Part shown: piece by piece, positions 1,716 to 45,224 of the stretch
Numbering within the stretch: the first letter of the stretch is position 1
Layout of the letters: each line of letters opens with the position of its first letter
From: Escherichia phage BF17
Reading direction: 5' to 3' (one strand)
Length of the DNA stretch: 64,000 bases
Sequence record: MW822008.1
Position numbers and translations under genes: made by a program
Notes under the pieces: model-generated
The model's database searches: none
Seen by the model: only the letters and a program-made list of their open reading frames with translations
What the model was told of the DNA's origin: nothing

Positions 1716-1755
1716 AATGGGTAAGGAACAATAATTAACACAAGGAGTGTGTGAA

Positions 1756-2484: not shown

Positions 2485-2494
2485 GGAAACGGCT

Positions 2495-2776
2495 ATGGAT
2501 TTTTATCTACACACATGGACATACGAACAATATATTACATTATATCTTGAAATTATTAACACAGAACCTAGGTGTGGTTGTTGGTTCGCAGATATCATAA
2601 AAGAGTATGCTGACGAGTTCGAGTTTGTGTATCTTGGGTCTGATATATTTGTAAAAAGTGTAGGTAAAACCGGACGAATCACTGATATAGATTACGACAC
2701 TGTTAGTGTTAATTTCTATGTTGATTTTCCTGATACTGGCGTTGATGGTGTATATTGTCTTTATGAAATAATTTAA
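2495..2776 (+). CDS. hypothetical small protein (paralog-family-like)
   Basis: ORF track. Followed by an intrinsic terminator at 2784. Confidence 0.6.
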   Translation: MDFYLHTWTYEQYITLYLEIINTEPRCGCWFADIIKEYADEFEFVYLGSDIFVKSVGKTGRITDIDYDTVSVNFYVDFPDTGVDGVYCLYEII

Positions 2777-2783
2777 ATTCTTA

Positions 2784-2807
2784 GGCCAGCGTTTGCTGGT
2801 CTTTTTT
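2784..2807 (+). terminator. intrinsic terminator
   Basis: GGCCAGC-GTTT-GCTGGTC followed by T6. Confidence 0.7.
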
Positions 2808-2820
2808 CGCAGGTACAAAG

Positions 2821-3123
2821 ATGTTCAGTATAGATTTAATTAACAGTACTATCAAAATGTTGGCTGATTTGGTGAGACAATCCAATGGAACTTTATATCC
2901 ATCAATGTATAAAATGTTTGACCGATACATCAAGGATTGTAACATATCATTATATGGACTTACTGTTGATATAGACGATTACTATGGAATTAATACTTCA
3001 TATAAAACAGGAATTTTAATTGGTATTAATATAAAGATGGGGTATTTCCCTTATTACTGTATAGGATTACCAGATAATACTTTGGTAGAATATCCAGCCA
3101 GTACTATTAAATTAAGAGGATAA
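2821..3123 (+). CDS. hypothetical small protein
   Basis: ORF track. No domain recognised. Confidence 0.6.
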   Translation: MFSIDLINSTIKMLADLVRQSNGTLYPSMYKMFDRYIKDCNISLYGLTVDIDDYYGINTSYKTGILIGINIKMGYFPYYCIGLPDNTLVEYPASTIKLRG

Positions 3124-3130
3124 AACTAAA

Positions 3131-3709
3131 ATGAATGTATTAGAATTAAGTACTAAGCTGATTAGTATGCGTAATGAGTGGTACGATTGGTTTTATAATG
3201 GTACTGATATGAATTTTTCAAAATATCCATTTATGGAATCAGGATGTGATTCAAGATACCGCTGGTTGAGCAAAAGTGATTCTGGTTTACATATTAGAAT
3301 CGATGATAGTGGTCGAGGAATTATACACGATTTACTTCAAGTTGATCAATTCGTCCATGACAATTGGTGTGATAACGATCCATACCTTGGAAATATGATT
3401 TATATAAGTGAAGATGATTGCGTATTCGTTATCCAGCGACATGGTAATTCTATGTTTTATGTAGCAGACAGCAGTACACCAGAAGGTGCAGCAGCCGATG
3501 GACTTATGCCTAAGATTGATATATTGGAATTTGGATTACCTGAGCACTTCCAGATTAGTACTTTATACGATATTCCACCACTTGAGTTCTTTGAAGAATT
3601 TAAATTGTACTTCAATGATCTTCAAAAATTGAGTACTGATAGACGCATTGAAATAACTGTTAAGTACATGGACGGAACGAAATTAACCGATACGGGGATA
3701 GAATTTTGA
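3131..3709 (+). CDS. hypothetical protein
   Basis: ORF track. No domain recognised. Confidence 0.65.
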   Translation: MNVLELSTKLISMRNEWYDWFYNGTDMNFSKYPFMESGCDSRYRWLSKSDSGLHIRIDDSGRGIIHDLLQVDQFVHDNWCDNDPYLGNMIYISEDDCVFVIQRHGNSMFYVADSSTPEGAAADGLMPKIDILEFGLPEHFQISTLYDIPPLEFFEEFKLYFNDLQKLSTDRRIEITVKYMDGTKLTDTGIEF

Positions 3710-4395
3710 TTAAAGATTTAGATAGAATTTTATATGTACTAAGGGGTGTAATTACATTACATCCACAAATCAATCGAATTGAAAGTACATTTCAGTTGGA
3801 GTCAAGAGAAACTCCATATTCACATATATCAAATGTAGTTGGTTCACTCAGTACTGAAGACTCGTCTTACGATATTTGTGTATGTGAAGTACAACCAAGT
3901 TCGGATCTTGGATTTGCTATTTTTGATAAAAATCAAAATCTCATTAGTATGTTTCAGTGCAATAATCCTTTTTGGAAAACATGCCTGTATCCAGAGTGGG
4001 CTATGCTTGATCCAACCAAGAGTACCATTAAAGTTTATGACTCTAAAAATGATGAAGTCGTTATTGATTTAGATGAGTCAATGTCAGAGGAAGAACACTT
4101 TCAGCTAATGATGATGCGTGCTATGCCTGAATACAATGCAATGATTAACACAGTGCAATACATTAAGGATACCATGCCAGCGTTGCGTACACATGAGTTT
4201 TGTCATCCGGTATTGTATGAACATCTAGATTTAGACTTCAGTACTATTAAATTTAAAGATAGTGTTAAAAAATATATTCAAGAGAATGTTAAATTTGATT
4301 TTATTAGTACTATGAACAATAATCCAAAAACTAATTTTAGGCATCAGTACAATGAATCTTTGTCTAATGGACGTGATACCAGTTGGTGGAAATAA
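3706..4395 (+). CDS. hypothetical protein
   Basis: TTG start overlapping the upstream TGA. The alternative-frame ORF 3839..4072 was rejected. Confidence 0.6.
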   Translation: MIKDLDRILYVLRGVITLHPQINRIESTFQLESRETPYSHISNVVGSLSTEDSSYDICVCEVQPSSDLGFAIFDKNQNLISMFQCNNPFWKTCLYPEWAMLDPTKSTIKVYDSKNDEVVIDLDESMSEEEHFQLMMMRAMPEYNAMINTVQYIKDTMPALRTHEFCHPVLYEHLDLDFSTIKFKDSVKKYIQENVKFDFISTMNNNPKTNFRHQYNESLSNGRDTSWWK

Positions 4396-4396
4396 T

Positions 4397-4660
4397 ATGA
4401 ATATTCAAGATAGATTACAATTACTGTACACACTTGAACAGGCTGCTTATGATCTTGTTCGAAAAATCTCAGATGAACTACCTAAAGGAACTAAAGTTCG
4501 TGTACGTGAGATGAATTATTTTTCTGGAGTAATTGAAGAACAAGTACTAACAGTGAATAAAGTAACATACTATGAATCTGAGTTGTCTATTCAGTGTGAA
4601 TCTGATGATGGATTAATATCATATTATGGAACTGATGTAGATATAGAGGTAATAAAATGA
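4397..4660 (+). CDS. small paralog-family protein
   Basis: ATG at 4397 after GGTGGA. Contains LPKGTKVRVREMNYFSGVIE, a variant of the family core. Confidence 0.6.
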   Translation: MNIQDRLQLLYTLEQAAYDLVRKISDELPKGTKVRVREMNYFSGVIEEQVLTVNKVTYYESELSIQCESDDGLISYYGTDVDIEVIK

Positions 4661-5799
4661 CCCTTTTGCAAATATATGAAGATTTAATGCACTTATGTAA
4701 TACAAACGATGCATTCTTTTATGTGGATCATAAAAGTCCTGCTGGTGGCACGTATCGTGTATTCAGTTATCGTCTAGCATCATACACTGATTTCATGCAA
4801 CCAAATGCGTTGGAAACCCGTGGCTCTATGTGGGAAATTGATGAAGAAGGTGACATGATACGTTGTGCAGCACGTACAATGAAAAAGTTCTTCAATGCTT
4901 ACGAGAATCCTGCTACAATGTTCCCTGCTAACACCACATGCGATGACATTGCGGTAGTGATGCCTAAGTTGGATGGCTCGATCATCAGTACTTATCGTGA
5001 TAATGATGGTGAGATTCGTTGTAAATCACATACTGCATTGTATTCTGACCATGCGATTAACAGCACTCGACTTATTAACGAGAACCAGAATTTGTATCAG
5101 TACATCGACGAAGCGGAACGTTTAGGTTACACAGTTAATATGGAGTATACAAGCCCAGAGTACCGAATTGTATTACCATATCAGGTAGAACAACTGTTTG
5201 TACTGAACGTTCGTCATCGTGTGAGTGGTGAGTTGCTTTGTGGTAAAGCACTACGTGATAAGTTTCCATGTCTTGCACAGTACAGTACTAATATGACTGG
5301 AAAAGATATTCATCACACTTTTCCGGTACGAAATACCTTCCGTGAAAGCGTGGAGGAAGTTCATAAAATGCTTGATATTGAGGGTTTTGTGTGCATCCTA
5401 AATAATGGGACAATGTGTAAAATAAAGACTGACTGGTACAGTTCATTACATCTTACAAAAGATAGTATTATTATTGATTCTCATTTATATGAAGCAGTAT
5501 TAAATGGTTCAAGTGATGATTTAAAACAATTGTTCAGTACTGATGAATATGCTATGCAAAAGATATTAAGAATGGAACAATTGGTATTTTCGTGCTATAA
5601 TGCATTACAAGATGAAGTAGAAAGCTTCGTCAAGGAACACAAGCACTTGGAGCGAAAGGAATTCGCAATGAAGGTTCAGGAGTGTTTAACTAATGAACTG
5701 AATCGTCAGGGCTTGGCCTTTGCAATGTATAACAATAAGAAAGTTGATTACAAAGAGACTCTTATAAAATACATGAAAATTGTACTAAAGGATTTTTAG
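4657..5799 (+). CDS. rnlA: RNA ligase 1 (T4 RnlA-like)
   Basis: N-terminus aligns with my recollection of T4 RnlA (YRVFSYRLASYTDF, ETRGSMWE, KKFFNAYENP). Also has the nucleotidyl-transferase motif I KLDGS and a later KIKTDWY motif. Confidence 0.88.
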   Translation: MTLLQIYEDLMHLCNTNDAFFYVDHKSPAGGTYRVFSYRLASYTDFMQPNALETRGSMWEIDEEGDMIRCAARTMKKFFNAYENPATMFPANTTCDDIAVVMPKLDGSIISTYRDNDGEIRCKSHTALYSDHAINSTRLINENQNLYQYIDEAERLGYTVNMEYTSPEYRIVLPYQVEQLFVLNVRHRVSGELLCGKALRDKFPCLAQYSTNMTGKDIHHTFPVRNTFRESVEEVHKMLDIEGFVCILNNGTMCKIKTDWYSSLHLTKDSIIIDSHLYEAVLNGSSDDLKQLFSTDEYAMQKILRMEQLVFSCYNALQDEVESFVKEHKHLERKEFAMKVQECLTNELNRQGLAFAMYNNKKVDYKETLIKYMKIVLKDF

Positions 5800-6622: not shown

Positions 6623-7555
6623 ATGCCAACTATCACACTAACAGTTGGATTGCCTGGGTGTGGTAAAACTACATGGGCAGTGCAAGAGATTAAAAACGCC
6701 AAATCCAAGACTATCAACATCAACCGTGATGATATTCGTGAATCTATGGCTGGGTCACATGATGCTTACAAATTCAACGATGCTAATGAGCAGTACGTAA
6801 CTAATTTACAGTTCAGTGCAGCAAATTCAGCAGCAGAGAATGGTTGGAACATCATCATATCCGATACAAACCTTAAACAACATTTCCGTAATCTCTGGAA
6901 AGTATGGGCTAAAGATAATGGTTATGATTACAAAGAAAAGAACTTCTATGATGATTTTGTACCTAATGAAGACCGTGGTGCAGATGTTCATGAATTCTTT
7001 AAGATTAAAGAGTTCGTAAAACTTTGTAAGAAATATAACCTCCAGCGTGAGCGTTCAGTACAAGATGATATCATTGACACAATGGCAGATACGTACTATT
7101 ATAGTAAGGCATTACACATTGGTTACTATGGTAATTCACGCGAAGCTGCTATCATCGTTGATATCGATGGAACTCTTGCTCATAAATGGGGTCGTAATCC
7201 TTACGATGAAAGTACTGTTCTTCAGGATACACCTGATGAAGAAGTTATTTTGTCTATTATCGCTGAAGCAGTTTTTCATAAACGCAAGATTATCGTCATG
7301 AGTGGGCGTACTGAAGGGTGTCGTGCTGATACCGAACAGTGGCTTAAGAATTGGGGTGTTCCTTACGATGCATTGTTTATGCGAGATATCGATGATAAAC
7401 GTCCTGATGATGTTGTAAAATTCGACCTGTACATGAAAAATGTGGTTGATCATTACGATGTTAAAAAGGTATATGATGACCGCGATCAAGTTGTATTCAT
7501 GTGGCGTAAGCTACTTGGGTTGAAAGTTTTCCAAGTGGCTGAAGGAAATTTCTAA
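6623..7555 (+). CDS. pseT: polynucleotide 5'-kinase / 3'-phosphatase (T4 PseT-like)
   Basis: N-terminal P-loop GLPGCGKTT, then the HAD phosphatase motif DIDGTLA. Size matches PseT. Terminator follows at 7563. Confidence 0.88.
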   Translation: MPTITLTVGLPGCGKTTWAVQEIKNAKSKTININRDDIRESMAGSHDAYKFNDANEQYVTNLQFSAANSAAENGWNIIISDTNLKQHFRNLWKVWAKDNGYDYKEKNFYDDFVPNEDRGADVHEFFKIKEFVKLCKKYNLQRERSVQDDIIDTMADTYYYSKALHIGYYGNSREAAIIVDIDGTLAHKWGRNPYDESTVLQDTPDEEVILSIIAEAVFHKRKIIVMSGRTEGCRADTEQWLKNWGVPYDALFMRDIDDKRPDDVVKFDLYMKNVVDHYDVKKVYDDRDQVVFMWRKLLGLKVFQVAEGNF

Positions 7556-12030: not shown

Positions 12031-12258
12031 ATGAAAGTAATTCAAGTTATGGTAGAAAAATACCAAACTGAAGATGGTCGTATTTTTGATTCAGCTAAAC
12101 AAGCTGAACACCATGAACGTATTATTTCTGGTGCACGTAAAGTATGTCCTACATGTAATGGAACACAACAAGTACCGTCAGAAGATTACCGCAGCTTTTA
12201 TGCTTGTCCACACTGTGATGGGAAAGGCTACGTAGAAAAACAAGAGGTATGGAAATGA
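12031..12258 (+). CDS. small DnaJ-type zinc-finger protein
   Basis: Contains CPTCNGTQ and CPHCDGKG, both CxxCxGxG-like repeats. Confidence 0.6.
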   Translation: MKVIQVMVEKYQTEDGRIFDSAKQAEHHERIISGARKVCPTCNGTQQVPSEDYRSFYACPHCDGKGYVEKQEVWK

Positions 12259-12668
12259 AATTGTATTGCTTAACTAATATGTACTGCCAAGGTGTCCAAG
12301 CTGGTATTCAAGCATTCCATGCTGGTGTTAAACTAATTAAAGAATATGAAGGTACTGCTTTCAGTACTATTATTGATGAATGGTACTATGAACACGAAAC
12401 TATTGTAGTACTAAATGCTGGTGGACATGATAAGTTAAATTCTTATTATAACAACCTTAGCAAACAGGGAAAAGTTCCGTTTGCCAAATTCAATGAAGCT
12501 GGATTGAATGATGCTATTACCTGTGTAGCAGTACTGTGTACGTCTGAAATGATTGAAGACATGGCTGTTATGCGTATGAATCTTCCTGCTGGTGATCAAC
12601 TAATGCAAGTAAAATATGGTGCATTGTTTGACACATTAAAAGCAATCAGCACAATGAGGACAATTTGA
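12249..12668 (+). CDS. peptidyl-tRNA hydrolase 2 (PTH2)-like fold protein
   Basis: Pattern recalls PTH2: QGVQAGIQAFHAG...W...ETIVVLNAGG...DAITCVAVL. This is similarity by eye only. Confidence 0.45.
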   Translation: MEMKLYCLTNMYCQGVQAGIQAFHAGVKLIKEYEGTAFSTIIDEWYYEHETIVVLNAGGHDKLNSYYNNLSKQGKVPFAKFNEAGLNDAITCVAVLCTSEMIEDMAVMRMNLPAGDQLMQVKYGALFDTLKAISTMRTI

Positions 12669-19132: not shown

Positions 19133-19628
19133 TACTAATATCTGGTTAGATAACATAATCAAGACATTAGAATTAATTAAACTTACATTACAAAAAACTA
19201 CTGATATTGAAATTAATATTAAACAAGAAATATTAAACTATTATCATAGAAACAAATATAGCACGTTTATCTCTAAATTAATTTATGGATTATATGATAT
19301 TGAAGATATTTGCATCGGTTACAGTACTGGTATTTGCTTCACAGTTAATGGTTTAAAAAATGATTTAAATTTCAGACTTTCCGATGAAGAGCAAGATTTT
19401 CGTAGATTTTGTGATAATATTATGGATACAGATAAAATTACATTTGTTATTGAATTAAATCAAACGTGGTCTACATATGCAGATAAACCATTTGAAATTA
19501 ATGAAACAGATGTGTTAAACTATATTCGAGTTATGAAAATTCATGATTTGTGTAAAAACGCATTGTTAAGTATTGGAGCTTATAATGAAACATACGACTT
19601 GGTTGAAGATAGCAGAAGTAGTTGCTGA
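19104..19628 (+). CDS. hypothetical protein
   Basis: ORF track. No domain recognised. Confidence 0.6.
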   Translation: MKYTHLSIDDTNIWLDNIIKTLELIKLTLQKTTDIEINIKQEILNYYHRNKYSTFISKLIYGLYDIEDICIGYSTGICFTVNGLKNDLNFRLSDEEQDFRRFCDNIMDTDKITFVIELNQTWSTYADKPFEINETDVLNYIRVMKIHDLCKNALLSIGAYNETYDLVEDSRSSC

Positions 19629-20064
19629 GGAAAGTAAATGTATTTCACAAAAAGTTGGTTGTGTTATTGTTAAAAATAACCGAGTATTGAGTACTGGATA
19701 CAATGGTACTCCATCAAAACAACCAAATTGTTGTGATGTGAATCAACACTTAGTCAATGATGGACGTTTTCAAGACTGGGTTAGTGATGAAGCAAAGCAT
19801 GAACATCATGAGTGGAGTAATATTCATGAAATCCATGCTGAAATGAACGCTTTACTCTATAGTTCTCCTACTGAACGTCAAGGTGCTACTCTTTACACAA
19901 CACTACAACCATGTTATACTTGTTCTAAGTTGATCGCAGGTAGTGGAATTTCACGTGTAATTTATCTCAAAAATTATCCTCGTACACCACCAGAAGCTAT
20001 TAAAGTACTGGAAGATGCTGGAATTATTGTTAATTGCATTTATGATAAGGGTCTTGATAAATGA
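19585..20064 (+). CDS. cd: dCMP deaminase
   Basis: Zinc motifs HAEMNAL and PCYTCSKLI. ATG at 19585 follows GGAG. Confidence 0.85.
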   Translation: MKHTTWLKIAEVVAEESKCISQKVGCVIVKNNRVLSTGYNGTPSKQPNCCDVNQHLVNDGRFQDWVSDEAKHEHHEWSNIHEIHAEMNALLYSSPTERQGATLYTTLQPCYTCSKLIAGSGISRVIYLKNYPRTPPEAIKVLEDAGIIVNCIYDKGLDK

Positions 20065-20915: not shown

Positions 20916-20950
20916 TTATATCTTCCTAAACAAAATTGAGGACTTGTTAT

Positions 20951-21559
20951 ATGAAAAGACTATGGCTTGAAGTGATACAAGCAGCAATGTTTCTATTGTT
21001 AATAAATTTTCCAGCCAGTGCTGGTATTGAAAGTAAAAATGTGATAAAGTATAATCCTGAAACCCGAAATGTATATTTCATATCAGATATTACAGATGGG
21101 TCACTCAAGAGAATGATAGAGTTGTATGATAAAGAACACTATGATACCATCACAATTACATCTCCTGGTGGTGATTTTGATGCAGGTATTCGAATGGCAA
21201 ACTTTGTTAGAGACAATGGGATAAATTTAATTGTTTCTAGGTATTGCAATTCAGCATGTACTGTGGTATTCTTTAGTGTATCTCCCGAAAAGCGATATAT
21301 GACAAATCGCTCAGTACTGGGTCTTCATAACATTTCGATTAAAAGTAATGTTACTGATGGTGATAATTCATTTGTGTCTGTAAGACAGTTATCAACTTTT
21401 ACCGAAGAAATGGCAACAAAGGTAGGTTTCCTTTTTTCACTATATGCAGCAAATGGAATCCCACCAGAAGTTCTATTTAGAGTTAGTCGTTCTCGTGGTG
21501 AAGATGTTGTAATATTAACAAAACCAGAACTGGTTTTTTACGGTTCAGTCAAACAATAA
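20951..21559 (+). CDS. secreted ClpP/SppA-fold serine-protease-like protein
   Basis: Signal peptide MKRLWLEVIQAAMFLLLINFPASAG. TSPGGDFDAGIRMANF and CNSAC align with the ClpP motifs SPGG and ASMG. Confidence 0.6.
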   Translation: MKRLWLEVIQAAMFLLLINFPASAGIESKNVIKYNPETRNVYFISDITDGSLKRMIELYDKEHYDTITITSPGGDFDAGIRMANFVRDNGINLIVSRYCNSACTVVFFSVSPEKRYMTNRSVLGLHNISIKSNVTDGDNSFVSVRQLSTFTEEMATKVGFLFSLYAANGIPPEVLFRVSRSRGEDVVILTKPELVFYGSVKQ

Positions 21560-21629: not shown

Positions 21630-21890
21630 ATGACAAACATCCAAAACTTGACATCTATTATTTTTTATGCTACTGTAGTAATGTATGCTACAGTTATTTT
21701 TCTAACAGTTTTCATTTACAAAGATTATCGTAATGGCTTTATTGATTCAACTACAATGAAGTTCAATTCAAAATTCGAAGCAATAATTTATTATGTACTA
21801 TCAACTTCATACTTGGTGTGCCTAATGTTGTTAGGAGCACTAATTTATATCTTATACACAACATTATTTGCAATTGGAGCTATTTTATGA
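21630..21890 (+). CDS. small membrane protein
   Basis: Two to three hydrophobic helices. Confidence 0.6.
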   Translation: MTNIQNLTSIIFYATVVMYATVIFLTVFIYKDYRNGFIDSTTMKFNSKFEAIIYYVLSTSYLVCLMLLGALIYILYTTLFAIGAIL

Positions 21891-22480
21891 CCTGTATTAT
21901 TGCACACACTAACGGAGTAAGTTCTTTTATTGCTGGGGATAAGTTAGGAAGCAATGGATTTACAAAAACTGTTCAAACTGAACCAAAGGTATTCGAGAAA
22001 GAATTTATCAAGTTACATGATGATGGACTAACTAGAACTAAAGAAGTAATGGCATTGGGTTATACTACATCATTTCGTATGGGTCAGTTGTTAAATTATA
22101 ACCTTAATTTACCTGAACAAGATGCTAGTCAAACATTTTCACAATATTTGGTTCTTAAAGTTATTCCAATTATTCGTCAAATGTTTAAAGAAGAATGGGG
22201 TGCACGAGATGCATCACAAGATGTAGGTGGTGGACAATTTATCATTCTCCACAATCATACAATCTATGAAGTTCAAGAAGACTTTTCAGTACTACAACCT
22301 AAAACAAGAATTACCGCAGTAGGTAGTGGGACATATCATGCAATTGCAGCAATGCAAGCATATATTGAAGTTGAGAACGAATCTAAAAAACCACTACACG
22401 AACGTATCAAATCAATTTTTAAAATTGTTAGTGATAATGTAACAAGCGTAAGCGAAGAGTTTGATGTTTTAAAATATTAA
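21887..22480 (+). CDS. Ntn-hydrolase / proteasome-beta (HslV)-like protein
   Basis: ATGA overlap start gives MTCIIAHT..., a Thr next to the initiator Met. Contains GDKLGSNG and AVGSGTYHAIAAMQA, matching the proteasome-type pattern. Confidence 0.55.
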   Translation: MTCIIAHTNGVSSFIAGDKLGSNGFTKTVQTEPKVFEKEFIKLHDDGLTRTKEVMALGYTTSFRMGQLLNYNLNLPEQDASQTFSQYLVLKVIPIIRQMFKEEWGARDASQDVGGGQFIILHNHTIYEVQEDFSVLQPKTRITAVGSGTYHAIAAMQAYIEVENESKKPLHERIKSIFKIVSDNVTSVSEEFDVLKY

Positions 22481-22507: not shown

Positions 22508-22702
22508 ATGATGGCATACACAATTTATGAATGGGTTTTGAGTTTTTTTATAGTTTTTTCTATTGTTGTAATTTATAACAATACTAAATGCTTATATAGG
22601 GACTTGAAATCCAATGGTTATCACAAAGATAATAATTTTATGTATGCCTATCATATTGGAATCATTCTGTTATTATCAATATATTTAATTGGTTTTTTAT
22701 AA
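22508..22702 (+). CDS. small membrane protein
   Basis: Two hydrophobic helices. Confidence 0.55.
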   Translation: MMAYTIYEWVLSFFIVFSIVVIYNNTKCLYRDLKSNGYHKDNNFMYAYHIGIILLLSIYLIGFL

Positions 22703-22711
22703 GGATTGAAT

Positions 22712-23464
22712 ATGATATCAGAAAAATTTATAAGCAATGAAGGTAAAAAGCGATTACTGATTATATCAGGTGCAGGACTTTCTGTTGAAAGTGGTATGGA
22801 ACCTTTTCGATTTGATGATGGTTTGTGGGATACATTTAAAATTAATGATGTATGTAACATTGCTAGTTTAACTACAAAATATCATGTTGTTCATTCTTTC
22901 TATAATACATTACGTGTAAAATTGGGACAATGCGAACCGAATGCAATGCATTATTTTATAAAATCGTTAGAAGATCAATATGGTGATTGCTTCCTTCATA
23001 TGACTTCTAACATGGACGATCTTTATACTCGTATTGGTGGTCATGAGCTTAAACTTCATGGAAACTTGTGCGAAGTTATTGAAAATTATAGTATCAATTC
23101 CGATGATTATAATGTTATTAACTGCGGATACGAACCATACATACCAAAACATGATGTTTTTGCTAAACCAAATGTAGTAATGATTGGAGAATATCATCGT
23201 TATGTTGATGGTATTCGCTTACCAATTTACGAAGAACGAAATAATGTGTTGAAATCTCTTAATGAAAATGATACAGTTATTGTAATTGGTAGTAGCGATA
23301 CAGTACTGGTATGGTCGAGATTAGCAGCAGCATTACCATGTTATAGTGTTAATGTTAACATTCGTAAAAATGATAATGATTTTTTGTTTAATGAAAAAGT
23401 TATCAAGCCAGCAACCAAAGCAATACCGCATCTAGAGACTATAATTAAGGAACGTATGAAATGA
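22712..23464 (+). CDS. Sir2-family NAD-dependent deacylase / ADP-ribosyltransferase
   Basis: Contains GAGLSVESGMEPFR (compare GAGISxxSGIPxFR), TSNMDDL (compare TQNIDxL) and the catalytic LHGN. Confidence 0.8.
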   Translation: MISEKFISNEGKKRLLIISGAGLSVESGMEPFRFDDGLWDTFKINDVCNIASLTTKYHVVHSFYNTLRVKLGQCEPNAMHYFIKSLEDQYGDCFLHMTSNMDDLYTRIGGHELKLHGNLCEVIENYSINSDDYNVINCGYEPYIPKHDVFAKPNVVMIGEYHRYVDGIRLPIYEERNNVLKSLNENDTVIVIGSSDTVLVWSRLAAALPCYSVNVNIRKNDNDFLFNEKVIKPATKAIPHLETIIKERMK

Positions 23465-24012
23465 GTGTTAAAGAAGTTCCCTTTGGTGAATATGGCACAC
23501 GTGCAAATTTTGTATTTTGTTATTTCTTTGCAAGAAAATGCAACCCTTACAAAAACTATGAGTTGAATGATATACCAGAAGTAAATTTAGTATTACTGCA
23601 ATTACGATGGGATGGTCTTCTTGGTGGATGTGGTGGAACCGTAGAAAGTACTGATATCTCACTAGAAGATGCGTTGCGTCGTGAAGTTCAAGAAGAAATG
23701 GATTACAATATTTTTGTTTCCCATCTTCGACCACTCAAAACTTTTGAAATTTACCCAGGTGCAAACAGTCACAGTTTTAGCTATGAAGTAACCTATGACG
23801 AGTTGAAACACATTAGAGATGGATACACTAATGCTAAACATGCAAGTGCAGAAGTTGCTGGTGTAAATTTATGTCATATTTCTCGTTATTCTAAGGGACA
23901 AAATCGAGAAGCGGGATATAATAATCTTATGACACAGAACTTCATCGGTACAGCAAAACAAGAATTGGAGTATCTGGTTCAAAAAGAAAACTTACTAATT
24001 AGTTATCTATAG
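23461..24012 (+). CDS. Nudix-family hydrolase (slightly atypical box)
   Basis: Contains GGTVESTDISLEDALRREVQEEMDY. The REVQEE core is present, but the upstream spacing is one residue longer than in MutT. Confidence 0.65.
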   Translation: MSVKEVPFGEYGTRANFVFCYFFARKCNPYKNYELNDIPEVNLVLLQLRWDGLLGGCGGTVESTDISLEDALRREVQEEMDYNIFVSHLRPLKTFEIYPGANSHSFSYEVTYDELKHIRDGYTNAKHASAEVAGVNLCHISRYSKGQNREAGYNNLMTQNFIGTAKQELEYLVQKENLLISYL

Positions 24013-24021
24013 GAGTTTAAC

Positions 24022-24342
24022 ATGTCTTACTCAATGTTTTTGGATGATATTCGTGATGCAAATCTATATTATCCAAACCAAGATATGGTGGTATGTCGTG
24101 ACTTTAAAAGTGCATGTGAATATGTTATTGAAAATGGAATTCCAGCATTTGTATCATTCGACCATGACTTGGGTGATGTGAGCGAAGACGAAAAGACTGG
24201 ATATTCTTTTGCTAAGTTTCTTATTGATTATATGTTTGATAATAATATTAAAGAACCGTTTGAGTACTTTGTTCACAGTAGTAATCCTGTTGGTAAAATT
24301 AATATTGAAACATACTTAAACAATGGATTTAACGCATTATGA
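24022..24342 (+). CDS. cyclic-phosphate-processing receiver (cREC)-like domain protein
   Basis: FLDDIR...SFDHDLGD...TGYSFAKFL...VHSSNPVG matches my recollection of the cREC_REC family. I could not verify this. Confidence 0.45.
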   Translation: MSYSMFLDDIRDANLYYPNQDMVVCRDFKSACEYVIENGIPAFVSFDHDLGDVSEDEKTGYSFAKFLIDYMFDNNIKEPFEYFVHSSNPVGKINIETYLNNGFNAL

Positions 24343-24641
24343 TTCAAACACACATCAAAAGTCTTATTTGTACTGTTCTGTTAGGTGCAGGAGTTCTTTG
24401 GTTCGGACAGTATCACGAGAACACTAAGCGTACCAACATTCACTACAATACCGCAGAAGTTGTTAGTTTAGGACAATGTAGCGAGTCCAAATGTTCATTT
24501 ATGTATAAAACCCAAAGTGGTGAAGTACGTAATGGACTATCAAGAGAACCAGTTTCAATTGGTCAACTTGTTTACCAGGAGTGCTGGGAAGAAAAGGTTC
24601 GAGGTTCACGTTGCTATGTTGAATACGAACCAAATATGTAA
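24339..24641 (+). CDS. membrane-anchored small protein
   Basis: N-terminal helix LICTVLLGAGVLWFG. ATGA overlap with the upstream stop. Confidence 0.6.
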   Translation: MIQTHIKSLICTVLLGAGVLWFGQYHENTKRTNIHYNTAEVVSLGQCSESKCSFMYKTQSGEVRNGLSREPVSIGQLVYQECWEEKVRGSRCYVEYEPNM

Positions 24642-24701
24642 TAATCCGAGTCAATAACATTAGTCGAGTACAAGGATGTACTCATAACTCAAGGATGTTT
24701 T

Positions 24702-26141
24702 ATGAAAAAATATACAATTGACACAAACGTACTACTATCTGACCCGAATGCATCTATTGCTTTTGATGGTGCTGCAATCATTCTACCATTTACAGTACTG
24801 GAAGAATTGGATTCAATTAAGAGTCGTAATGTAGATGTTTCACGCGATGCTCGTGTTGCTATTCGTAACATTGAAGCAATTATTGCAGATGCATCACATG
24901 ATGAGATTAGTAGTACTGGTGTTAATATTGCTGATGTTCATACCAATATGAATCCTGATAGCAAATTGTTTGTTATTACAAACGAAGAAGCTGAAGCACT
25001 AATTCGTACTAAAGGTTCAGAAGAGAAAGTTCAAACCCTTCTCAAAAGCACAGTACCTGATGATAAAATCATTCTGGTAGCTTTAGCAACAGAATCAGTA
25101 CTGGTAACTCGTGATATCAACATGCGTATCAAAGCACTAAGTTATGGTGTCGAGGTACAAGATTATCGCCATGATATTGTTATTGGTGATAGTGATTTGA
25201 TTCACATTGGTCAACACCATTTGGAAATTAATTTTTGGGAAGTATATAGCAACTTATCCAATACTAATATTCAATCCGAACAAGTTGGTCGTCGTTTGTA
25301 TCATTACATTTCTAAAAGCTTGATTGAACATTTGCTTCCACAAAATCTATGCATCGGTGATTATCTATATGATGATGCAGACGTATTATTTGTGTACGAA
25401 GGTCAATCAGCAATTGAGGAAGATGATGGAACACTAACACCAGAAGATATTTTGGTATTCCAAGATATTGGACAATCAGTAGCTTTACGTGCTAAAGTAT
25501 GGGATATTAAAGCAAAGAATATCCAACAAGCACTCGCCATCAACAGTATTCTCGATCCTGATGTACATCTAACAGTACTGCTAGGTTCTGCTGGTACTGG
25601 TAAAACACTAATTACGATTGCTACTGCATTAGAATTAGTACTGGAAAAACGTAAATACGACCGAATCATCTTCTCTAAAACTCAAGACTCACAGTTTGAA
25701 GATATTGGTTTCTTGCCAGGTTCAGAAGCAGAAAAAGTGATTCCATTCTGTGGAGCCGCAATTGACGCGTTAGAGTTTCTTCATAAAGATGATGCTAACC
25801 CACAAGGTAGTATTGAAGAGATTATGAAACGTAATGTTATTCAATTTAAAGCACTAAACTTTGTACGTGGACGTTCATTCACCAACACTATTCTAGTAGT
25901 TGATGAATTCCAAAACATTACACCTGCACAAGCCAAAACAATCTTGACACGAGCAGGATTAAACTGTAAAGTAGTAATTATGGGTAACTTGAGTCAGATT
26001 GACAGTAAGTTTATTAGTCCTGTTAACAGTGGTTTGACATATGTAACTGAGAAGTTTAAAGATTGGGCAGGTTGTCGTGTCATCGAACTTGAAGGTGTTG
26101 TTCGCTCACCACTAGCTGAATTTGCTGAAGAAAATATGTAA
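24702..26141 (+). CDS. phoH: PIN-domain + PhoH-like ATPase (PhoH2/YlaK type)
   Basis: N-terminal PIN domain (YTIDTNVLL...LEELD). C-terminal P-loop LLGSAGTGKTL and Walker B VVDEFQN. Confidence 0.85.
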   Translation: MKKYTIDTNVLLSDPNASIAFDGAAIILPFTVLEELDSIKSRNVDVSRDARVAIRNIEAIIADASHDEISSTGVNIADVHTNMNPDSKLFVITNEEAEALIRTKGSEEKVQTLLKSTVPDDKIILVALATESVLVTRDINMRIKALSYGVEVQDYRHDIVIGDSDLIHIGQHHLEINFWEVYSNLSNTNIQSEQVGRRLYHYISKSLIEHLLPQNLCIGDYLYDDADVLFVYEGQSAIEEDDGTLTPEDILVFQDIGQSVALRAKVWDIKAKNIQQALAINSILDPDVHLTVLLGSAGTGKTLITIATALELVLEKRKYDRIIFSKTQDSQFEDIGFLPGSEAEKVIPFCGAAIDALEFLHKDDANPQGSIEEIMKRNVIQFKALNFVRGRSFTNTILVVDEFQNITPAQAKTILTRAGLNCKVVIMGNLSQIDSKFISPVNSGLTYVTEKFKDWAGCRVIELEGVVRSPLAEFAEENM

Positions 26142-26209: not shown

Positions 26210-26398
26210 ATGGCTAAACAACCTAAGAAAAAAGAACCAGTAGCAAAAGTTAAGAAAGAGAAAGTTATTCAATCTAAAGAACAACGTATGTACGAACAAC
26301 GTAAGAGTGAAACCCTATCCGGTCTACAAGCTCTACGCAAACAAGGTGTACTAACTCGTGCACAGTACCGTGAACTAGTAGCTCAGAAAGGTTTTTGA
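26210..26398 (+). CDS. small lysine-rich basic protein
   Basis: ATG at 26210 after AAGGAG. The upstream part of the track ORF overlaps the promoter at 26149..26178. Confidence 0.6.
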   Translation: MAKQPKKKEPVAKVKKEKVIQSKEQRMYEQRKSETLSGLQALRKQGVLTRAQYRELVAQKGF

Positions 26399-26503
26399 TT
26401 CATTTGAAGACATATTGTGGAGTTCTTAATAAATACTTTTATAAGAATAATAATACTTTTTATTAAATTAAAAAGAACTCCATGTGTTATTTCAGTTTTT
26501 CGT

Positions 26504-26528
26504 CCCTGTCTTTTGGCAGGGATTTTTT
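26504..26528 (+). terminator. intrinsic terminator
   Basis: CCCTGTC-TTTT-GGCAGGG followed by ATTTTTT. Confidence 0.7.
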
Positions 26529-26624: not shown

Positions 26625-27182
26625 ATGTTTTTTGACCAAACATTTACGTTGTATCACGATTCTGGTAAAGTTGAGATTATTGATAATCTGTTAGAGTACA
26701 TTGCGGAACATGACGGTATAGACCGTTTCCACAGTAAGATGAAATTCGATTTAGCTGAATTCAACAAAAAGAATCGTGAAACATTTTGGAAGAACCGTTT
26801 CTATTACGAAATGTATCCAGAAAAGTTCGTAGGTTATTATCTTTGTACTGAAAAAGGATTACTTGTATCTCCTGATTTACTTATGGGTGAATACATGATA
26901 CTCTATAATGAGTACTGGGAACATAAACGTAAAGCTCGTGATAAGGAATGGCGACATAAGCGTTCGTATATGTACAAACATAACCACTCCCGATACAAGC
27001 GTCCTAAGACTCAGCAAGAGCGTCGTATGGCTTGTGCAGTACTGAAGGATGAGGGGGAACCTGAAATACGTGGAAGACGTAAGATGCGTTCATTACCATC
27101 GTATTGGGACGATATCAGAACAAGACACAGTACTGGCTGGAAATACAGTACTAAACGTAAACATCAATACAAAGGGAGCTAA
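26625..27182 (+). CDS. hypothetical protein with a highly basic C-terminus
   Basis: AAGGAG upstream. No domain recognised. Confidence 0.65.
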   Translation: MFFDQTFTLYHDSGKVEIIDNLLEYIAEHDGIDRFHSKMKFDLAEFNKKNRETFWKNRFYYEMYPEKFVGYYLCTEKGLLVSPDLLMGEYMILYNEYWEHKRKARDKEWRHKRSYMYKHNHSRYKRPKTQQERRMACAVLKDEGEPEIRGRRKMRSLPSYWDDIRTRHSTGWKYSTKRKHQYKGS

Positions 27183-27539: not shown

Positions 27540-28189
27540 TGAAAAATGTAACTCAAGAAAAGATTCTGTACCTTGCAAAGTACAATGGTGGTTTCAATAT
27601 CATTAGCCGTGAGTACAGTGGTAATTTGGCTAAGTTGATTGACAGTTTGTTAGAATTTGATTTCATTAAATGGGAAACTAATGAACTTTGGTACGAATAT
27701 GCTGGTCAGAAATGGGAAAGTGATTATGATAATGCAATACATTCATACACTATCACCAAAGCAGGTGAAGTTCGATTAGCCATTATGCGTTGTGCATATA
27801 CTTACAAAAATCATAAAGGTGAAGAAAAACATATTCGCAGAAATGAAGAGCTATTACTTCTCATGGAAGCAGCAAAAGTTACAATGCATGATTTGTTCCA
27901 CCACCCACGTTGGTATGAAAATCTAACAAAAGCAGAGTACAAAGCTTTACGTTACATTGATGAACAAAACAACACCCCAGTTGAAGTTGATGATGTTAGT
28001 GATGATGAACTAAGCCTCAAAAATGTATTTGAAAGTACCAGTACTGAAAGTATTACAGACATTTCTGTACAGATGGCCCTAAAAGCAATGGAACTTTTCA
28101 AGACACAATATGAAGGACACAGTGCTGAAGAAGTAGAGCGTGAGTTCATCACACGCGTACAGATTGCATTGTTCCAATCGAAAAAGTAG
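27539..28189 (+). CDS. hypothetical protein
   Basis: TAATG overlap with the upstream ORF. Its C-terminal ~40 aa are repeated, in degenerate form, downstream. Confidence 0.65.
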   Translation: MKNVTQEKILYLAKYNGGFNIISREYSGNLAKLIDSLLEFDFIKWETNELWYEYAGQKWESDYDNAIHSYTITKAGEVRLAIMRCAYTYKNHKGEEKHIRRNEELLLLMEAAKVTMHDLFHHPRWYENLTKAEYKALRYIDEQNNTPVEVDDVSDDELSLKNVFESTSTESITDISVQMALKAMELFKTQYEGHSAEEVEREFITRVQIALFQSKK

Positions 28190-43593: not shown

Positions 43594-43995
43594 ATGACTA
43601 CAGTTGATGATATCTATAGCACTATACGCAATATGAGTACAGATAGAAAAGTATTTGGCGATAAAGAAAAATCTAAGTGTTATGGTATTGATTCTTTTGA
43701 TATAATTTCTTATGAGTACAATACAAGTGGAAATAGTTCACTGAATATCGTCTGTCCTCGTGACCCAGAAAATAATTTTATGTATGTTGAAATTAATAAT
43801 GATGGAATGTTTTTTACAAAAGTTTTCAAAGGTGGAATTAATTACGAACCTATTGAATGTATGAATGAAGAAACTTTCTTTCAAGAAGATACAATTATCA
43901 ATTTAGGTTTTAGTTTTGATGATTATAAAACATTAGAACATGACTTTAATCGTTATTATAATGGTTTCTTAAAGGAGTTAACAATTTATCTATGA
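43594..43995 (+). CDS. hypothetical protein
   Basis: ORF track. Confidence 0.6.
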   Translation: MTTVDDIYSTIRNMSTDRKVFGDKEKSKCYGIDSFDIISYEYNTSGNSSLNIVCPRDPENNFMYVEINNDGMFFTKVFKGGINYEPIECMNEETFFQEDTIINLGFSFDDYKTLEHDFNRYYNGFLKELTIYL

Positions 43996-45224
43996 ATAAC
44001 CAATATATTGAACAAACAATAGTGAAACACTTGGCTGGGTCACAAGCCTACGGAACCAGTACACCGGAAAGTGATACTGATTATCGTGGTATTTTTCTTG
44101 CTAATAAAGAATTTATTCTTACACCCTTCTATAAGGTCAAAGAGGTAGCTGACAAAAGCGAAGAAGATACTAAATTCTATGAGTTGAATCAGTATTTAAA
44201 ATTATACACTGAAGCTAACCCTAATATTCTTGAATCACTTTGGGTTGAACCTGAACACATTGTGGAAAGTACTGAAATTTATGACTATCTTCGTTCATTT
44301 AACCAAAAACTTCTTAGTTCCAAGATTGCATTTTCATACACTGGATATGCATATAATCAGATTAAGCGTATGACAAATCATCACGGTTGGATGGATAAAG
44401 AGCGTATTGCTGAAAAACGATTAAATGAGATTTTAGAAGAACACCCTGTCGATGAGGTTCTTGCGTGGATGTATGATTCATTCCCACAGTATCTTGTTGA
44501 ACGTTTAGATACATCCAACTTACATCCATTTAATGCTAAAAAGATTGATTTTGAAAAATATATGCGTGATACATCATTGCAGTTAGTTTCGAAAAATCCA
44601 TTAAAGCAATATCATTTCGTAAGATTAGTGCATAACTACACTACTGAAAAAATTCTTGATCGTGATTTCAATTTATTGAATTTTAATAATGGTTATGAAC
44701 TAATTCATTACGGAGAAAACATTTTTGCGATTGTTAAGAATCCTAATGAAAGCACTATTAACCATGATGGTTCATTGCGTTATTTTTCAAAAGAACGTAG
44801 TACTGAAGAGTTGAAAACCAAACCAGAACTAATTGTCAAATTTAACGAAAAAGAATATCAGGAAAATAGTGAGAATAGGAAAAGTTATCATAAATGGAAA
44901 GAAAATCGTAATGCCAAACGTGCTATTTTAGAATCACAACACGGATACGATTGTAAACATGCTATGCACACAATCCGACTTTTGAATAGTGCAGAAGAAG
45001 CGTTACAAAGTGGAATTATTCAAGTTAAACGACCAGATGCACAAATGTTGATGGATATTCGTAATGGTAAATGGAAGTATGAAGAAGTATTAGAATATTT
45101 CGATGATAAAGTACAATACATTCGTGATGTTCTATATAAGAAATCAGTACTTCCTAAAAAACCAAACATCAAGTTAGCATCAAAAATTATCATTGATATT
45201 AGAGAAATGCAATGGTATAAGTAA
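43992..45224 (+). CDS. Pol-beta-superfamily nucleotidyltransferase (RlaP-like)
   Basis: N-terminal LAGSQAYGTSTPESDTDYRGIF is the GS...D.D nucleotidyltransferase motif typical of the PF10127-type family. Confidence 0.65.
   Translation: MNNQYIEQTIVKHLAGSQAYGTSTPESDTDYRGIFLANKEFILTPFYKVKEVADKSEEDTKFYELNQYLKLYTEANPNILESLWVEPEHIVESTEIYDYLRSFNQKLLSSKIAFSYTGYAYNQIKRMTNHHGWMDKERIAEKRLNEILEEHPVDEVLAWMYDSFPQYLVERLDTSNLHPFNAKKIDFEKYMRDTSLQLVSKNPLKQYHFVRLVHNYTTEKILDRDFNLLNFNNGYELIHYGENIFAIVKNPNESTINHDGSLRYFSKERSTEELKTKPELIVKFNEKEYQENSENRKSYHKWKENRNAKRAILESQHGYDCKHAMHTIRLLNSAEEALQSGIIQVKRPDAQMLMDIRNGKWKYEEVLEYFDDKVQYIRDVLYKKSVLPKKPNIKLASKIIIDIREMQWYK

Follow-up and report, generated by a model that had tools for sequence, protein, structure and literature searches.

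Iyer, Burroughs, Anantharaman and Aravind (2022, Viruses 14:1977; PMC9503650) described for Serratia phage BF a gene neighbourhood (their configuration 1, prototype sirtuin AQW88637.1) that they predicted to form an NAD+-dependent RNA end-repair system, in which the sirtuin is predicted to act like Tpt1/KptA. This system is a prediction, and we found in the literature neither an experimental report on the cluster nor a demonstration of a sirtuin acting on an RNA phosphate. The gene set and its RNA-repair prediction have thus already been published and are not new here; the published description omits a small membrane protein of the cluster and the ATPase half of its last gene product (the word PhoH has zero occurrences).

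The template for the prediction is the Tpt1/KptA pathway of fungal and plant tRNA splicing and of KptA-bearing jumbo phages, which includes a 2H cyclic phosphodiesterase (CPDase) and a Macro/Poa1p enzyme. By analogy, the logic would be the same in both: NAD+ is spent, and the RNA phosphate is removed to give an ADP-ribose cyclic phosphate that downstream hydrolases clear. Tpt1 chemistry proceeds in two steps, which the sirtuin sequence of nucleophilic attack on C1'' followed by attack of a His-activated 2''-OH parallels (PMC6333775). However, sirtuins are not homologous to Tpt1, which has an ART fold, and the predicted clean-up relies on a Nudix hydrolase and a cyclic-phosphate-processing receiver-like (cREC) protein instead of CPDase and Macro.

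Organization of the BF17 cluster

We analysed 64,000 nucleotides of Escherichia phage BF17 (MW822008.1; hereafter the window). The five-gene cluster in this giant E. coli virus is real, and all five open reading frames are confirmed where the initial annotation had placed them (Table 1). Its heading, an NAD/ADP-ribose and RNA-processing cluster, was right, as was every domain call in it. Its claim that the five genes are translationally coupled stands for two junctions: the Sir2 stop and Nudix start, and likewise the cREC stop and membrane protein start, overlap as ATGA. It fails for the other two, with a 9-nt gap containing GGAG between Nudix and cREC and 60 nt, including a separate AAGGA and a weak hairpin, before PIN-PhoH. 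Sir2 starts at the ATG at 22712, 7 nt past an AAGGA, whereas the mechanical reading frame begins at TTG 22706. The genes flanking the cluster encode proteases and small membrane proteins.

Table 1. Features of the cluster and its 3' flank in the BF17 window
Feature	Position	Strand	Description
Sir2	22712..23464	+	250 aa; phage-clade sirtuin
Nudix	23461..24012	+	183 aa; Nudt16-like Nudix hydrolase
cREC	24022..24342	+	106 aa; cyclic-phosphate-processing receiver-like domain protein
TM4C (small membrane protein)	24339..24641	+	N-terminal hydrophobic anchor and ~70-aa beta domain
PIN-PhoH	24702..26141	+	479 aa; PhoH2-type architecture, predicted RNA endonuclease/ATPase
Stem-loop	26146..26168	+	perfect 10-11 bp, directly after the PhoH stop codon, without U-tract
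Intrinsic terminator	26502..26523	+	first convincing one 3' of the cluster (terminator scan)

A sirtuin without the zinc module

Sir2 matches Pfam SIR2 (PF02146) at 3.6e-20 (73 bits, curated cut-off 24) and PHROG 2162 at 2e-77, and its closest solved structures are those of CobB (6rxj and 1s5p, 3e-22). GenBank annotators name it cobB or NAD-dependent deacylase. The motif and catalytic HG noted earlier as intact are indeed present, with GAGLSVESGMEPFR at residue 20, TSNMD at 98 and HG at 116. Motifs and alignment show the NAD+ site and His116 intact, with all sirtuin hallmarks retained (NAD+ loop GAGxSxxSGxxxFR, Asn and Asp of TQNxD, catalytic His) and only the Gln of TQNxD replaced by Ser. The alignment also shows that the phage clade as a whole keeps GAGxSxxSGxxxFR, the Asn/Asp of TxNxD, the catalytic His and the Tyr and Arg of the class III FYNxxR motif.

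The similarity to CobB and other class III deacylases, which rests on the sequence match, the NAD-binding loop, the catalytic His and FYNxxR, ends at the substrate side. The Zn-Cys cluster is missing from all aligned members of the phage clade, and GTSxxVxPxA has become G[SC]SxxVxxW; in BF17, only C120 and C138, two Cys instead of the four that bind Zn, fall in the segment aligned to the CobB Cys cluster, and GSSDTVLVWS stands where CobB has GTSGHVYPAA. Both changes are common to T5-like, rV5-like, Mydo-like and Vibrio phage sirtuins. Relative to CobB, Sir2 also has 8-11 residues inserted behind the (I/F)GE motif. Its scores with the CobB equivalog models, 85-93 bits, fall far short of their cut-offs (243-320), and it reaches none of the NCBIfam deacylase cut-offs. 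In sirtuins, the Zn-binding module and the GTSxxVxPxA strand form the acyl-peptide cleft. Because these two elements are lost while the NAD site is kept, the aligned features fit an NAD-dependent enzyme whose substrate would be other than a canonical acyl-lysine peptide.

The NAD+-centred theme is shared with the defence SIR2 NADases (ThsA, DSR1/2, SIR2-HerA) and with the phage NARP1/2/3 pathways. Unlike the former, Sir2 is a single-domain protein with no sensor or partner domain (SLOG, HerA, TIR, pAgo) and has no PADLOC match at E <= 0.01. The NARP enzymes include no sirtuin, Nudt16-like Nudix or cREC.

The Nudix and cREC proteins

The Nudix protein matches Pfam Nudt16-like (PF22327) at 8e-19 (68.6 bits, cut-off 27), Pfam NUDIX at 5e-7 and, directly by phmmer, human NUDT16 and Xenopus X29 at 3e-12. 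The match runs through the entire domain and takes in the extended Nudix box with its Glu residues: GGCGGTVESTDISLEDALRREVQEEMD aligns to the NUDT16/X29 box with the catalytic Glu retained, and what had been noted as a slightly atypical box is, in alignment with both proteins, of NUDT16/X29 type with a longer spacer before REVQEE. NUDT16 and X29 act in U8 snoRNA decapping, as IDP-ases and as ADP-ribose pyrophosphatases on protein- or RNA-linked ADP-ribose, and human NUDT16 strips ADP-ribose from phosphate-end ADP-ribosylated RNA (PMC6582358). The phage enzyme differs in being only ~30% identical and in its relation to cREC. In six related loci (CBB-, BF- and GAP32-type) the two form a single protein of 299-302 aa, and this fusion is the strongest evidence that both work on one substrate.

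The initial cREC assignment is upheld by Pfam cREC_REC (PF20274; 80.5 bits, cut-off 27), by a receiver-like fold, and by acidic residues ending beta1 and beta3 and a Ser ending beta4. No histidine-kinase partner is annotated within 45 kb around the cluster. cREC is predicted to be a cyclic-phosphate phosphoesterase; the literature consulted reports no assay of it. The RNA-repair context of the domain is clear at two loci: in L011, an unrelated T4-like contig, the cREC gene overlaps that of an Rnl2-type ligase, behind which come Rnl1, a kinase and Metallophos, and Mydovirus KPP-1 has the order Rnl1 - cREC (4e-17) - AAA_33 kinase - x - Sir2. Across 51 diverse non-Rak2 cREC loci, however, no Pfam family occurs in more than 2 of the 117 neighbouring proteins and no Sir2 lies within 6 kb (0 of 51), so that gene context in general argues less strongly for cREC than the literature suggests. 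Proximity of cREC to PhoH elsewhere (4 of 53 loci) is at about chance level.

The membrane protein, PIN-PhoH and the 3' flank

The membrane anchor noted initially in TM4C corresponds to a hydrophobic helix spanning residues ~3-28. TM4C has no Pfam match and belongs to PHROG 14661, 'membrane protein'; only 4 of its homologues are close, and 1.84 billion proteins contain about 19 cluster representatives. G45, C47, C52, C82, W83 and C92 are invariant, and one homologue carries a lipobox-like FIAAC. The structural model (pLDDT 75) consists of one helix and five strands, with weak fold matches to OB-like domains and a phage lipoprotein. The initial annotation took TM4C as a system component. Its position within the cluster is kept in all Rak2-like relatives, but the protein resembles, and probably is, an exported envelope protein. 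We therefore consider it most likely an unrelated passenger and not a pathway enzyme; its description as a conserved four-Cys, probably exported passenger is new here.

The last gene is the most conserved of the cluster (68-76% identity to orthologues), and the PhoH2-type call holds on both halves of the protein. Pfam PIN_4 (7e-20, 72 bits against 21.9) covers profile positions 1-132 of 132 and PhoH (7e-44, 150 bits against 27) positions 2-198 of 205; PDB 3b85 PhoH matches at 2e-22. The translation has the PIN acidic residues D7, E34, D120 and D138, Walker A GSAGTGKT and Walker B ILVVDE. This is the two-domain architecture of mycobacterial PhoH2, a PIN RNase joined to a PhoH RNA helicase, although the score of 152 bits is far below the 680-bit cut-off of the NCBIfam PhoH2 equivalog (NF053827) and no PhoAT-like antitoxin gene lies upstream. 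The role of PIN-PhoH in jumbo phages has been called 'enigmatic' (Iyer et al. 2021).

The stem-loop behind this gene (-18.7 kcal/mol for an 80-nt stretch, z -1.85; Rfam match sub-threshold and not significant) may be a processing site or a weak terminator. The terminator further downstream (-15.2 kcal/mol, z -4.4; 0 of 200 shuffles as stable) is preceded by a 62-aa reading frame at 26210..26398 and is likely the 3' end of the transcription unit.

Relatives and gene context

Configuration 1 contains orthologues of Sir2, Nudix, cREC and the PIN-domain protein in the same linked order. In BF (L017) and CBB (L003/L013) the arrangement is 2H - small ORF - Sir2 - Nudix~cREC - TM4C - PIN-PhoH, and EJP2 (L002) lacks the small ORF; orthologues in relatives are 40-76% identical to those of BF17 (44-68% for BF). 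BF17 departs from this pattern: Nudix and cREC are separate genes, and the 2H cyclic phosphodiesterase gene, which directly precedes Sir2 in all other Rak2-like relatives, is neither beside Sir2 nor, by tblastn with the EJP2 and CBB proteins, elsewhere in the 64-kb window. Of the 225 phage records matching 2H, EJP2 is the only Escherichia record among the matches listed, and Escherichia is outside the ten listed genera (each with at least 4 records). In EJP2, CBB and BF, NARP2-type NAD+ reconstitution genes (Nampt and an NMNAT/Nudix gene) precede the cluster by 2-5 kb; Nampt and NMNAT are absent from the window. That the PBECO4/121Q lineage, as seen in the window, is without the 2H gene and the adjacent NAD-salvage genes of its relatives is new here.

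Outside the Rak2-like phages, a gene for an RNA ligase, a kinase or a HAD-SAK protein adjoins the phage-clade sirtuin in three other lineages. Besides KPP-1, these are the T5-like Th1, where HAD_SAK_2 (a Swiss-army-knife HAD RNA-repair phosphatase, 4e-20) directly follows Sir2, and the rV5-like V18, where Rnl1 is three genes upstream. Jumbo phages with 2H carry it either alongside KptA (Erwinia and Dickeya phages of 255-275 kb) or alongside phage-clade Sir2 (Rak2-like phages, together with the Vibrio phage 1.081.O), and no phage among the records listed has both KptA and Sir2. KptA is absent from the window, which encodes Rnl1 (4657-5796), a T4-type Pnkp (6623-7552, 15 kb upstream of the cluster), a Pth2-like hydrolase and the RNA-repair nucleotidyltransferase RlaP.

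Proposed mechanism and alternatives

Based on the above data, we tentatively propose, with a probability of roughly 0.4, that all Rak2-like jumbo phages carry an NAD+-consuming RNA end-processing module centred on the sirtuin, and that the cluster is the version of it in the PBECO4/121Q lineage. We infer all the chemical steps. Metal-independent RNases, such as anticodon nucleases of the host, would leave RNA ends with a 2',3'-cyclic phosphate or a 2'- or 3'-phosphate. The cyclic phosphate would be opened by a cyclic phosphodiesterase, which in the relatives may be the adjacent 2H and here presumably is cREC or the T4-type Pnkp. The sirtuin would then spend NAD+ in the manner of Tpt1/KptA, the RNA phosphate attacking C1'' of NAD+ with release of nicotinamide. 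The Nudt16-like enzyme and cREC, made as a single polypeptide by relatives, would remove the ADP-ribose, either as the free cyclic-phosphate by-product or while attached to the RNA phosphate, to yield AMP and phosphoribose products. Lastly, PIN-PhoH could unwind or trim the RNA substrate, and the ends would be sealed by Rnl1, encoded elsewhere in the genome.

The initial annotation had envisaged that the phage manipulates host NAD+ or ADP-ribose signalling, detoxifies defence products or counters Thoeris and DSR. This idea found no specific support, and the comparative evidence favours RNA end-healing over it, given the ligase, kinase and HAD-SAK neighbours of the clade sirtuin, the 2H gene and Nudix~cREC fusion of the relatives, the loss of the Zn module and peptide motif with retention of the NAD site and His, the separation of KptA from Sir2 among the rows listed, the order and orthology conserved with the published prototype, cREC beside ligases in L011, and the Rnl1, Pnkp, Pth2-like hydrolase and RlaP genes of the window. 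It is unlikely, in our estimate, that Nudix and cREC destroy or recycle ADP-ribose (ADPR)-derived products while the sirtuin modifies a host protein, so that the phage is protected from NAD-centred immunity. The NARP2-type genes near the cluster in EJP2, CBB and BF would suit such a role, defence is now known to yield ADPR-1''-phosphate, which phages counter with a phosphatase, and Iyer et al. (2021) named cREC and Nudix as proteins that might process ADPr signals; yet the anti-aRES phosphatase is a Macro domain and not cREC, a sirtuin consumes NAD+ where restoration would be expected, and Sir2 lacks a PADLOC match. Nor has this lineage kept the NAD-salvage linkage, since Nampt, NMNAT and 2H are missing from the window, and salvage genes are not the recurrent neighbours of the clade sirtuin. 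Candidate targets for such a role are ADPR, ADPR-1''-phosphate, cyclic ADPR isomers and a host defence or metabolic protein. Somewhat less probable still is a CobB-like deacylase or protein ADP-ribosyltransferase serving host takeover, with the Nudix clearing O-acyl-ADPR or ADPR and with cREC and PIN-PhoH separate. The nearest solved and curated relatives of Sir2, which are CobB-type class III deacylases, the conserved NAD site, His and FYNxxR, and the GenBank name point this way, against which stand the low equivalog scores, the Zn-binding module and GTSxxVxPxA strand absent or altered throughout the clade, and an RNA end-processing gene context in four lineages.

Several observations also weigh against RNA end repair itself. 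The T4-type Pnkp of the phage itself turns cyclic phosphates into 2',3'-OH ends, creating no 2'-phosphate, and E. coli has KptA, so that the need for a Tpt1 analogue is not evident. PIN nucleases leave 5'-P/3'-OH ends that need no healing. The adjacent 2H is lost in the PBECO4/121Q lineage, and the adjacency of Sir2, Nudix, cREC and PIN-PhoH occurs in only one deeply syntenic phage lineage, so that the PIN-PhoH link could be inherited gene order. The last point bears equally on whether there is one system at all, or independent early or middle genes held together by synteny in Rak2-like phages, with only Nudix-cREC, and perhaps Sir2, forming a unit. The separate ribosome-binding site of PIN-PhoH, the envelope-like TM4C, the heterogeneous neighbours of cREC elsewhere and the proteases and small membrane proteins on either side agree with the latter; but gene order and spacing are maintained between relatives whose proteins are 40-76% identical, although the flanking 2H, NAD-salvage and HslV-like genes come and go, and with the two start/stop overlaps and the Nudix~cREC fusion this leaves such a loose assemblage an unlikely explanation.

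A further alternative, improbable in our judgement and the least probable of those considered, is that the sirtuin and the Nudt16-like~cREC enzyme are a writer/eraser pair that marks phosphate ends of RNA with ADP-ribose and takes the mark off again, instead of performing a mere repair step. Like Tpt1/TRPT1, the sirtuin would be able to cap 5'-, 3'- or 2'-phosphates of RNA with ADP-ribose, and the cap would come off in two steps catalysed by the Nudix-cREC enzyme. The state of the end would be read by PIN-PhoH, acting as a 5'-end-dependent helicase-nuclease. If this holds, the enzyme would be the first sirtuin directed at RNA, and the phage would encode an NAD-dependent control over RNA fate.

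Organization of the cluster

A 5-kb query across the cluster matched, over its full length and with 99.4-99.6% identity, jumbo coliphages of the PBECO4/121Q/phAPEC6/JP4 type (~350-370 kb; Asteriusvirus, the 'Rak2-like' group), whose GenBank records already label the five genes as Sir2, nudix hydrolase, hypothetical, membrane protein, and PhoH-like. All five proteins also belong to existing PHROG phage families. The five reading frames lie exactly where the initial annotation had placed them (see table), in a region of ~33% G+C in which every gene is on the + strand. The translational coupling that it proposed for all five holds at two junctions, Sir2/Nudix and cREC/membrane protein, which show ATGA start/stop overlaps; it does not hold for cREC, preceded by a 9-nt spacer containing GGAG, nor for PIN-PhoH, which has a 60-nt spacer with its own AAGGA. 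A hairpin in this 60-nt spacer falls short of significance (z -1.45). The terminator at 26502 is the only convincing signal of an operon boundary. The promoter scan remained at chance level (58 sites found vs 52 expected), and no Rfam match above threshold indicated a structured RNA within the cluster or close to it. A perfect GUAUGGGAC/GUCCCAUAC stem-loop lies immediately 3' of the PhoH stop codon and overlaps a promoter-like GGGACA-N17-TATAAT site; one GenBank relative annotates a terminator somewhere within the matched 5-kb region.

Features of the cluster and its surroundings (window coordinates)
Feature	Coordinates	Strand	Support or remark
Rnl1, T4-type RNA ligase 1	4657-5796		RNA_lig_T4_1 + T4_Rnl1_C tRNA-specific domain
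Pnkp, T4-type	6623-7552		AAA_33 kinase + HAD_PNKP phosphatase
Pth2-like peptidyl-tRNA hydrolase	12255-12665		2e-5
dCMP-deaminase-like gene	19573-20064
ClpP/NfeD-like serine protease	20936-21559		N-terminal hydrophobic segment
Small membrane ORF	21630-21890
HslV-family peptidase	21887-22480
Small membrane ORF	22508-22702
Sir2	22712..23464	+	Pfam SIR2 3.6e-20
Nudix	23461..24012	+	Pfam Nudt16-like 8.1e-19, NUDIX 4.9e-7
cREC	24022..24342	+	Pfam cREC_REC 1.5e-22
Membrane protein TM4C	24339..24641	+	without Pfam match
PIN-PhoH	24702..26141	+	Pfam PIN_4 7.3e-20, PhoH 7.4e-44
Stem-loop	26146-26168		GUAUGGGAC/GUCCCAUAC
First strong terminator 3' of the cluster	26502..26523		terminator scan + fold test
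185-aa protein	26625-27182		PHROG 12793, without Pfam match
RlaP-family 'RNA repair pathway' polymerase-beta-type nucleotidyltransferase	43992-45221		3e-16

Just upstream of Sir2, genes for a ClpP/NfeD-like protease and an HslV-family peptidase are interleaved with two small membrane ORFs; phage EJP2 also has an HslV-like gene upstream of its cluster (75% identity). The 185-aa protein encoded downstream, of unknown function and with a very basic, Lys/Arg/His-rich C-terminal half, is kept downstream of PIN-PhoH in phages CBB and BF and in other Rak2-like loci (38-47% identity). The region is bordered by two dCMP-deaminase-like genes, one in the window and one in the JP4 locus (27790-28158), and anaerobic ribonucleotide reductase genes lie further downstream, so that the cluster is embedded in a long nucleotide-metabolism/repair block.

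A 2H-less, unfused variant of a predicted system

The cluster is already known as a computational prediction, in which the sirtuin was proposed to act like KptA on RNA 2'-phosphates (Iyer et al. 2022, PMC9503650). In Serratia phage BF the order is 2H (cyclic phosphoesterase) - 71 aa - Sir2 - Nudix~cREC - TM4C - PIN-PhoH, where ~ denotes a fusion, and the five shared proteins are 44, 47, 62, 43, and 68% identical to those of the window. This common order of orthologues makes the window cluster an orthologous copy of the published, computationally predicted system; judged from its genes, it is a 2H-less, unfused variant. In the window and in EJP2, Nudix and cREC are encoded separately; in CBB, BF, and related contigs they are fused. 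A 2H protein (143-148 aa, HxT...HxS) is encoded directly upstream of Sir2 in EJP2, CBB, BF, and five IMG/VR contigs. No 2H, Nampt, or NMNAT gene was found within the 64-kb window when these proteins of EJP2 and CBB served as tblastn queries; the corresponding upstream slot there holds the ClpP-like protease, small membrane proteins, and the HslV-like peptidase. 2H matched 225 phage records; Escherichia is absent from the ten genera among the matches listed, EJP2 being the only Escherichia 2H record among them. In relatives, a NARP2-type 'NAD island' (NMNAT/ADP-ribose pyrophosphatase plus Nampt) is located 2-5 kb upstream of 2H - Sir2, at 414-3549 of the EJP2 locus and 640-3847 of the CBB locus; the island is missing from the 64-kb window.

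The membrane protein TM4C is not mentioned in the neighbourhood description of Iyer et al. 2022. Its slot between cREC and PIN-PhoH is kept in every Rak2-like relative. The family is small and phage-restricted, with only four close homologues in a collection of 5.8 billion proteins and ~19 cluster representatives, nearly all of ~100 aa, among 1.84 billion; no match was obtained in Pfam, NCBIfam, or PADLOC. G45, C47, C52, C82, W83, and C92 are invariant, and in one homologue a lipobox-like FIAAC stands in for the anchor. The model (moderate pLDDT of 75) comprises one N-terminal helix and a five-stranded beta domain, with weak OB-like and lipoprotein-like fold matches. Assignments of TM4C to Zn ribbons or to RNA-binding OB proteins were rejected. 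We infer that TM4C is an exported, disulfide-bonded envelope protein and a conserved passenger of the cluster.

Nudix, cREC, and PIN-PhoH

The Nudix protein can be aligned directly to human NUDT16 and Xenopus X29 (3e-12), across their extended Nudix box as well; this alignment identifies the box described initially as slightly atypical as the NUDT16 type. When TRPT1 or PARP10 has ADP-ribosylated a phosphate end of RNA, NUDT16 strips the ADP-ribose off again (PMC6582358). In view of this activity, possible substrates of the Nudix~cREC pair include ADP-ribose joined to RNA in addition to free ADPR cyclic phosphate. The cREC domain, defined in jumbo phages (Iyer et al. 2021), had been proposed in the initial annotation, and the assignment is confirmed by the profile search. 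Its 169 homologues in the 5.8-billion-protein collection are essentially all stand-alone proteins of 100-145 aa, and an alignment of 55 sequences reveals the invariant residues D8, D9, R11, D47, H48, D49, S86, N88, and G91. AlphaFold (pLDDT 96.7) predicts a four-stranded alpha/beta sandwich, in which the invariant residues would lie at the C-terminal ends of strands 1, 3, and 4; a search of solved structures by sequence gave no match. The possibility that cREC is the phage ADPR-1''-phosphate phosphatase of the aRES paper was rejected, that enzyme being a Macro domain. PIN-PhoH, termed 'enigmatic' in jumbo phages (Iyer et al. 2021), was correctly called and contains Walker A and B motifs.

A Pfam scan of 117 proteins neighbouring cREC in 51 dereplicated, diverse IMG/VR loci yielded no family more than twice (RNA ligase, PolyA_pol, and PhoH once each; AAA_33 and Metallophos twice each), and on this basis we propose no general rule linking cREC to RNA ligases. 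Neither Sir2 nor a Nudt16-like Nudix occurs within 6 kb of cREC in any of these 51 loci. On an unrelated T4-like contig, cREC overlaps an Rnl2-type ligase gene, after which come Rnl1, a kinase, and a Metallophos gene. In four other unrelated viral contigs (L024, L044, L075, and L092) a stand-alone cREC lies one to three genes from a PIN-less PhoH; cREC-PhoH proximity in 4/53 loci is about the chance rate, PhoH being common.

The sirtuin and its RNA-repair context

The Sir2 contains GAGLSVESGMEPFR, TSNMD, and HG. Related sirtuins were found by tblastn in 986 phage records, including T5-like, rV5-like, phi92-like, and KVP40-like Vibrio phages, among others. An alignment with CobB shows that the NAD loop, Asn/Asp, catalytic His, and FYNxxR are retained in all members of this clade and that none has the Cys cluster that belongs to the Zn module. 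A VCNI motif is clade-wide, T[STA]NxD replaces TQNxD, and G[SC]SxxVxxW replaces GTSxxVxPxA. The acyl-peptide cleft of sirtuins is formed by the Zn module and the GTSxxVxPxA strand, and the Tyr/Arg pair of class III sirtuins binds anionic acyl groups. This pattern is consistent with an NAD-dependent enzyme whose substrate is not a peptide and is possibly anionic. A homologue on a 45.8-kb Logan contig (P0133, 63% identical) has a degenerate NAD loop, GNGLSMDSGFDLYD vs GAGLSVESGMEPFR, and may have been inactivated in what is otherwise a similar phage.

Phage sirtuins occur beside RNA-repair genes in several lineages. In the T5-like Salmonella phage Th1, the gene after Sir2 encodes HAD_SAK_2 (4e-20), a phosphatase of the 'Swiss Army Knife RNA repair' type; the rV5-like phage V18 has an Rnl1-type ligase three genes upstream of Sir2; and Klebsiella phage KPP-1 (Mydovirus) has the order Rnl1 - cREC - AAA_33 kinase - x - Sir2. 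Lying 15-18 kb upstream of the cluster in the window, Rnl1 and Pnkp have the domains of a complete classical pair for tRNA healing and sealing. The Pth2-like and RlaP genes are further translation-rescue/RNA-repair genes, despite the absence of tRNA genes from the 64-kb window. Homologues of E. coli KptA occur in 98 phage records, most of them from jumbo phages of Erwinia, Dickeya, and Klebsiella (255-307 kb), and KptA-bearing Erwinia and Dickeya phages also occur among the 2H matches listed. Rak2-like, T5-like, and rV5-like phages are absent from the KptA matches listed, and tblastn with E. coli KptA found no homologue within the 64-kb window. Among the matches listed, the distribution of KptA and phage Sir2 looks, qualitatively, like non-homologous displacement.

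Possible functions of the cluster

The best-supported reading, to which we assign a probability of roughly 0.4, is an NAD+-dependent RNA end-processing module. Several points weaken it. No neighbour family occurs more than twice around cREC in the 51 loci, none of which has Sir2 or a Nudt16-like Nudix within 6 kb; the complete Sir2 - Nudix - cREC - PIN-PhoH order is confined to one deeply syntenic lineage; the host E. coli has KptA; and the phage's own Pnkp makes no 2'-phosphates. Mere synteny is one of the rival explanations. A CobB-like, protein-modifying role is another rival, in which the sirtuin would act on proteins; Sir2 scores far below the CobB equivalog cut-offs, and the clade has lost the Cys cluster.

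The initial annotation favoured manipulation of host NAD+ or ADPR signalling. Its domain calls stand, and its interpretation is partly supported. Sir2 as a defence-type NADase was rejected since no PADLOC defence SIR2 model matched. A role in NAD/ADPR counter-defence, a further rival, draws its main support from the NARP2-type genes that adjoin the cluster in relatives, together with recent aRES/ADPR-1P work. Our literature search found no experimental study of the cluster, of any phage sirtuin, or of cREC.

As a sequence finding, the cluster is an annotated and previously described gene neighbourhood, and its value lies in testable biochemistry in a tractable coliphage: the copy in E. coli jumbo phages that are easy to grow (PBECO4, 121Q, phAPEC6) makes the prediction of RNA end processing directly testable. 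Among sequenced phages, nearly a thousand carry a sirtuin. Should the Tpt1-like prediction prove true, sirtuin chemistry would reach beyond proteins to RNA, and phage tRNA repair would gain an NAD+-consuming branch that ties RNA-targeting defences to the NAD+ arms race.
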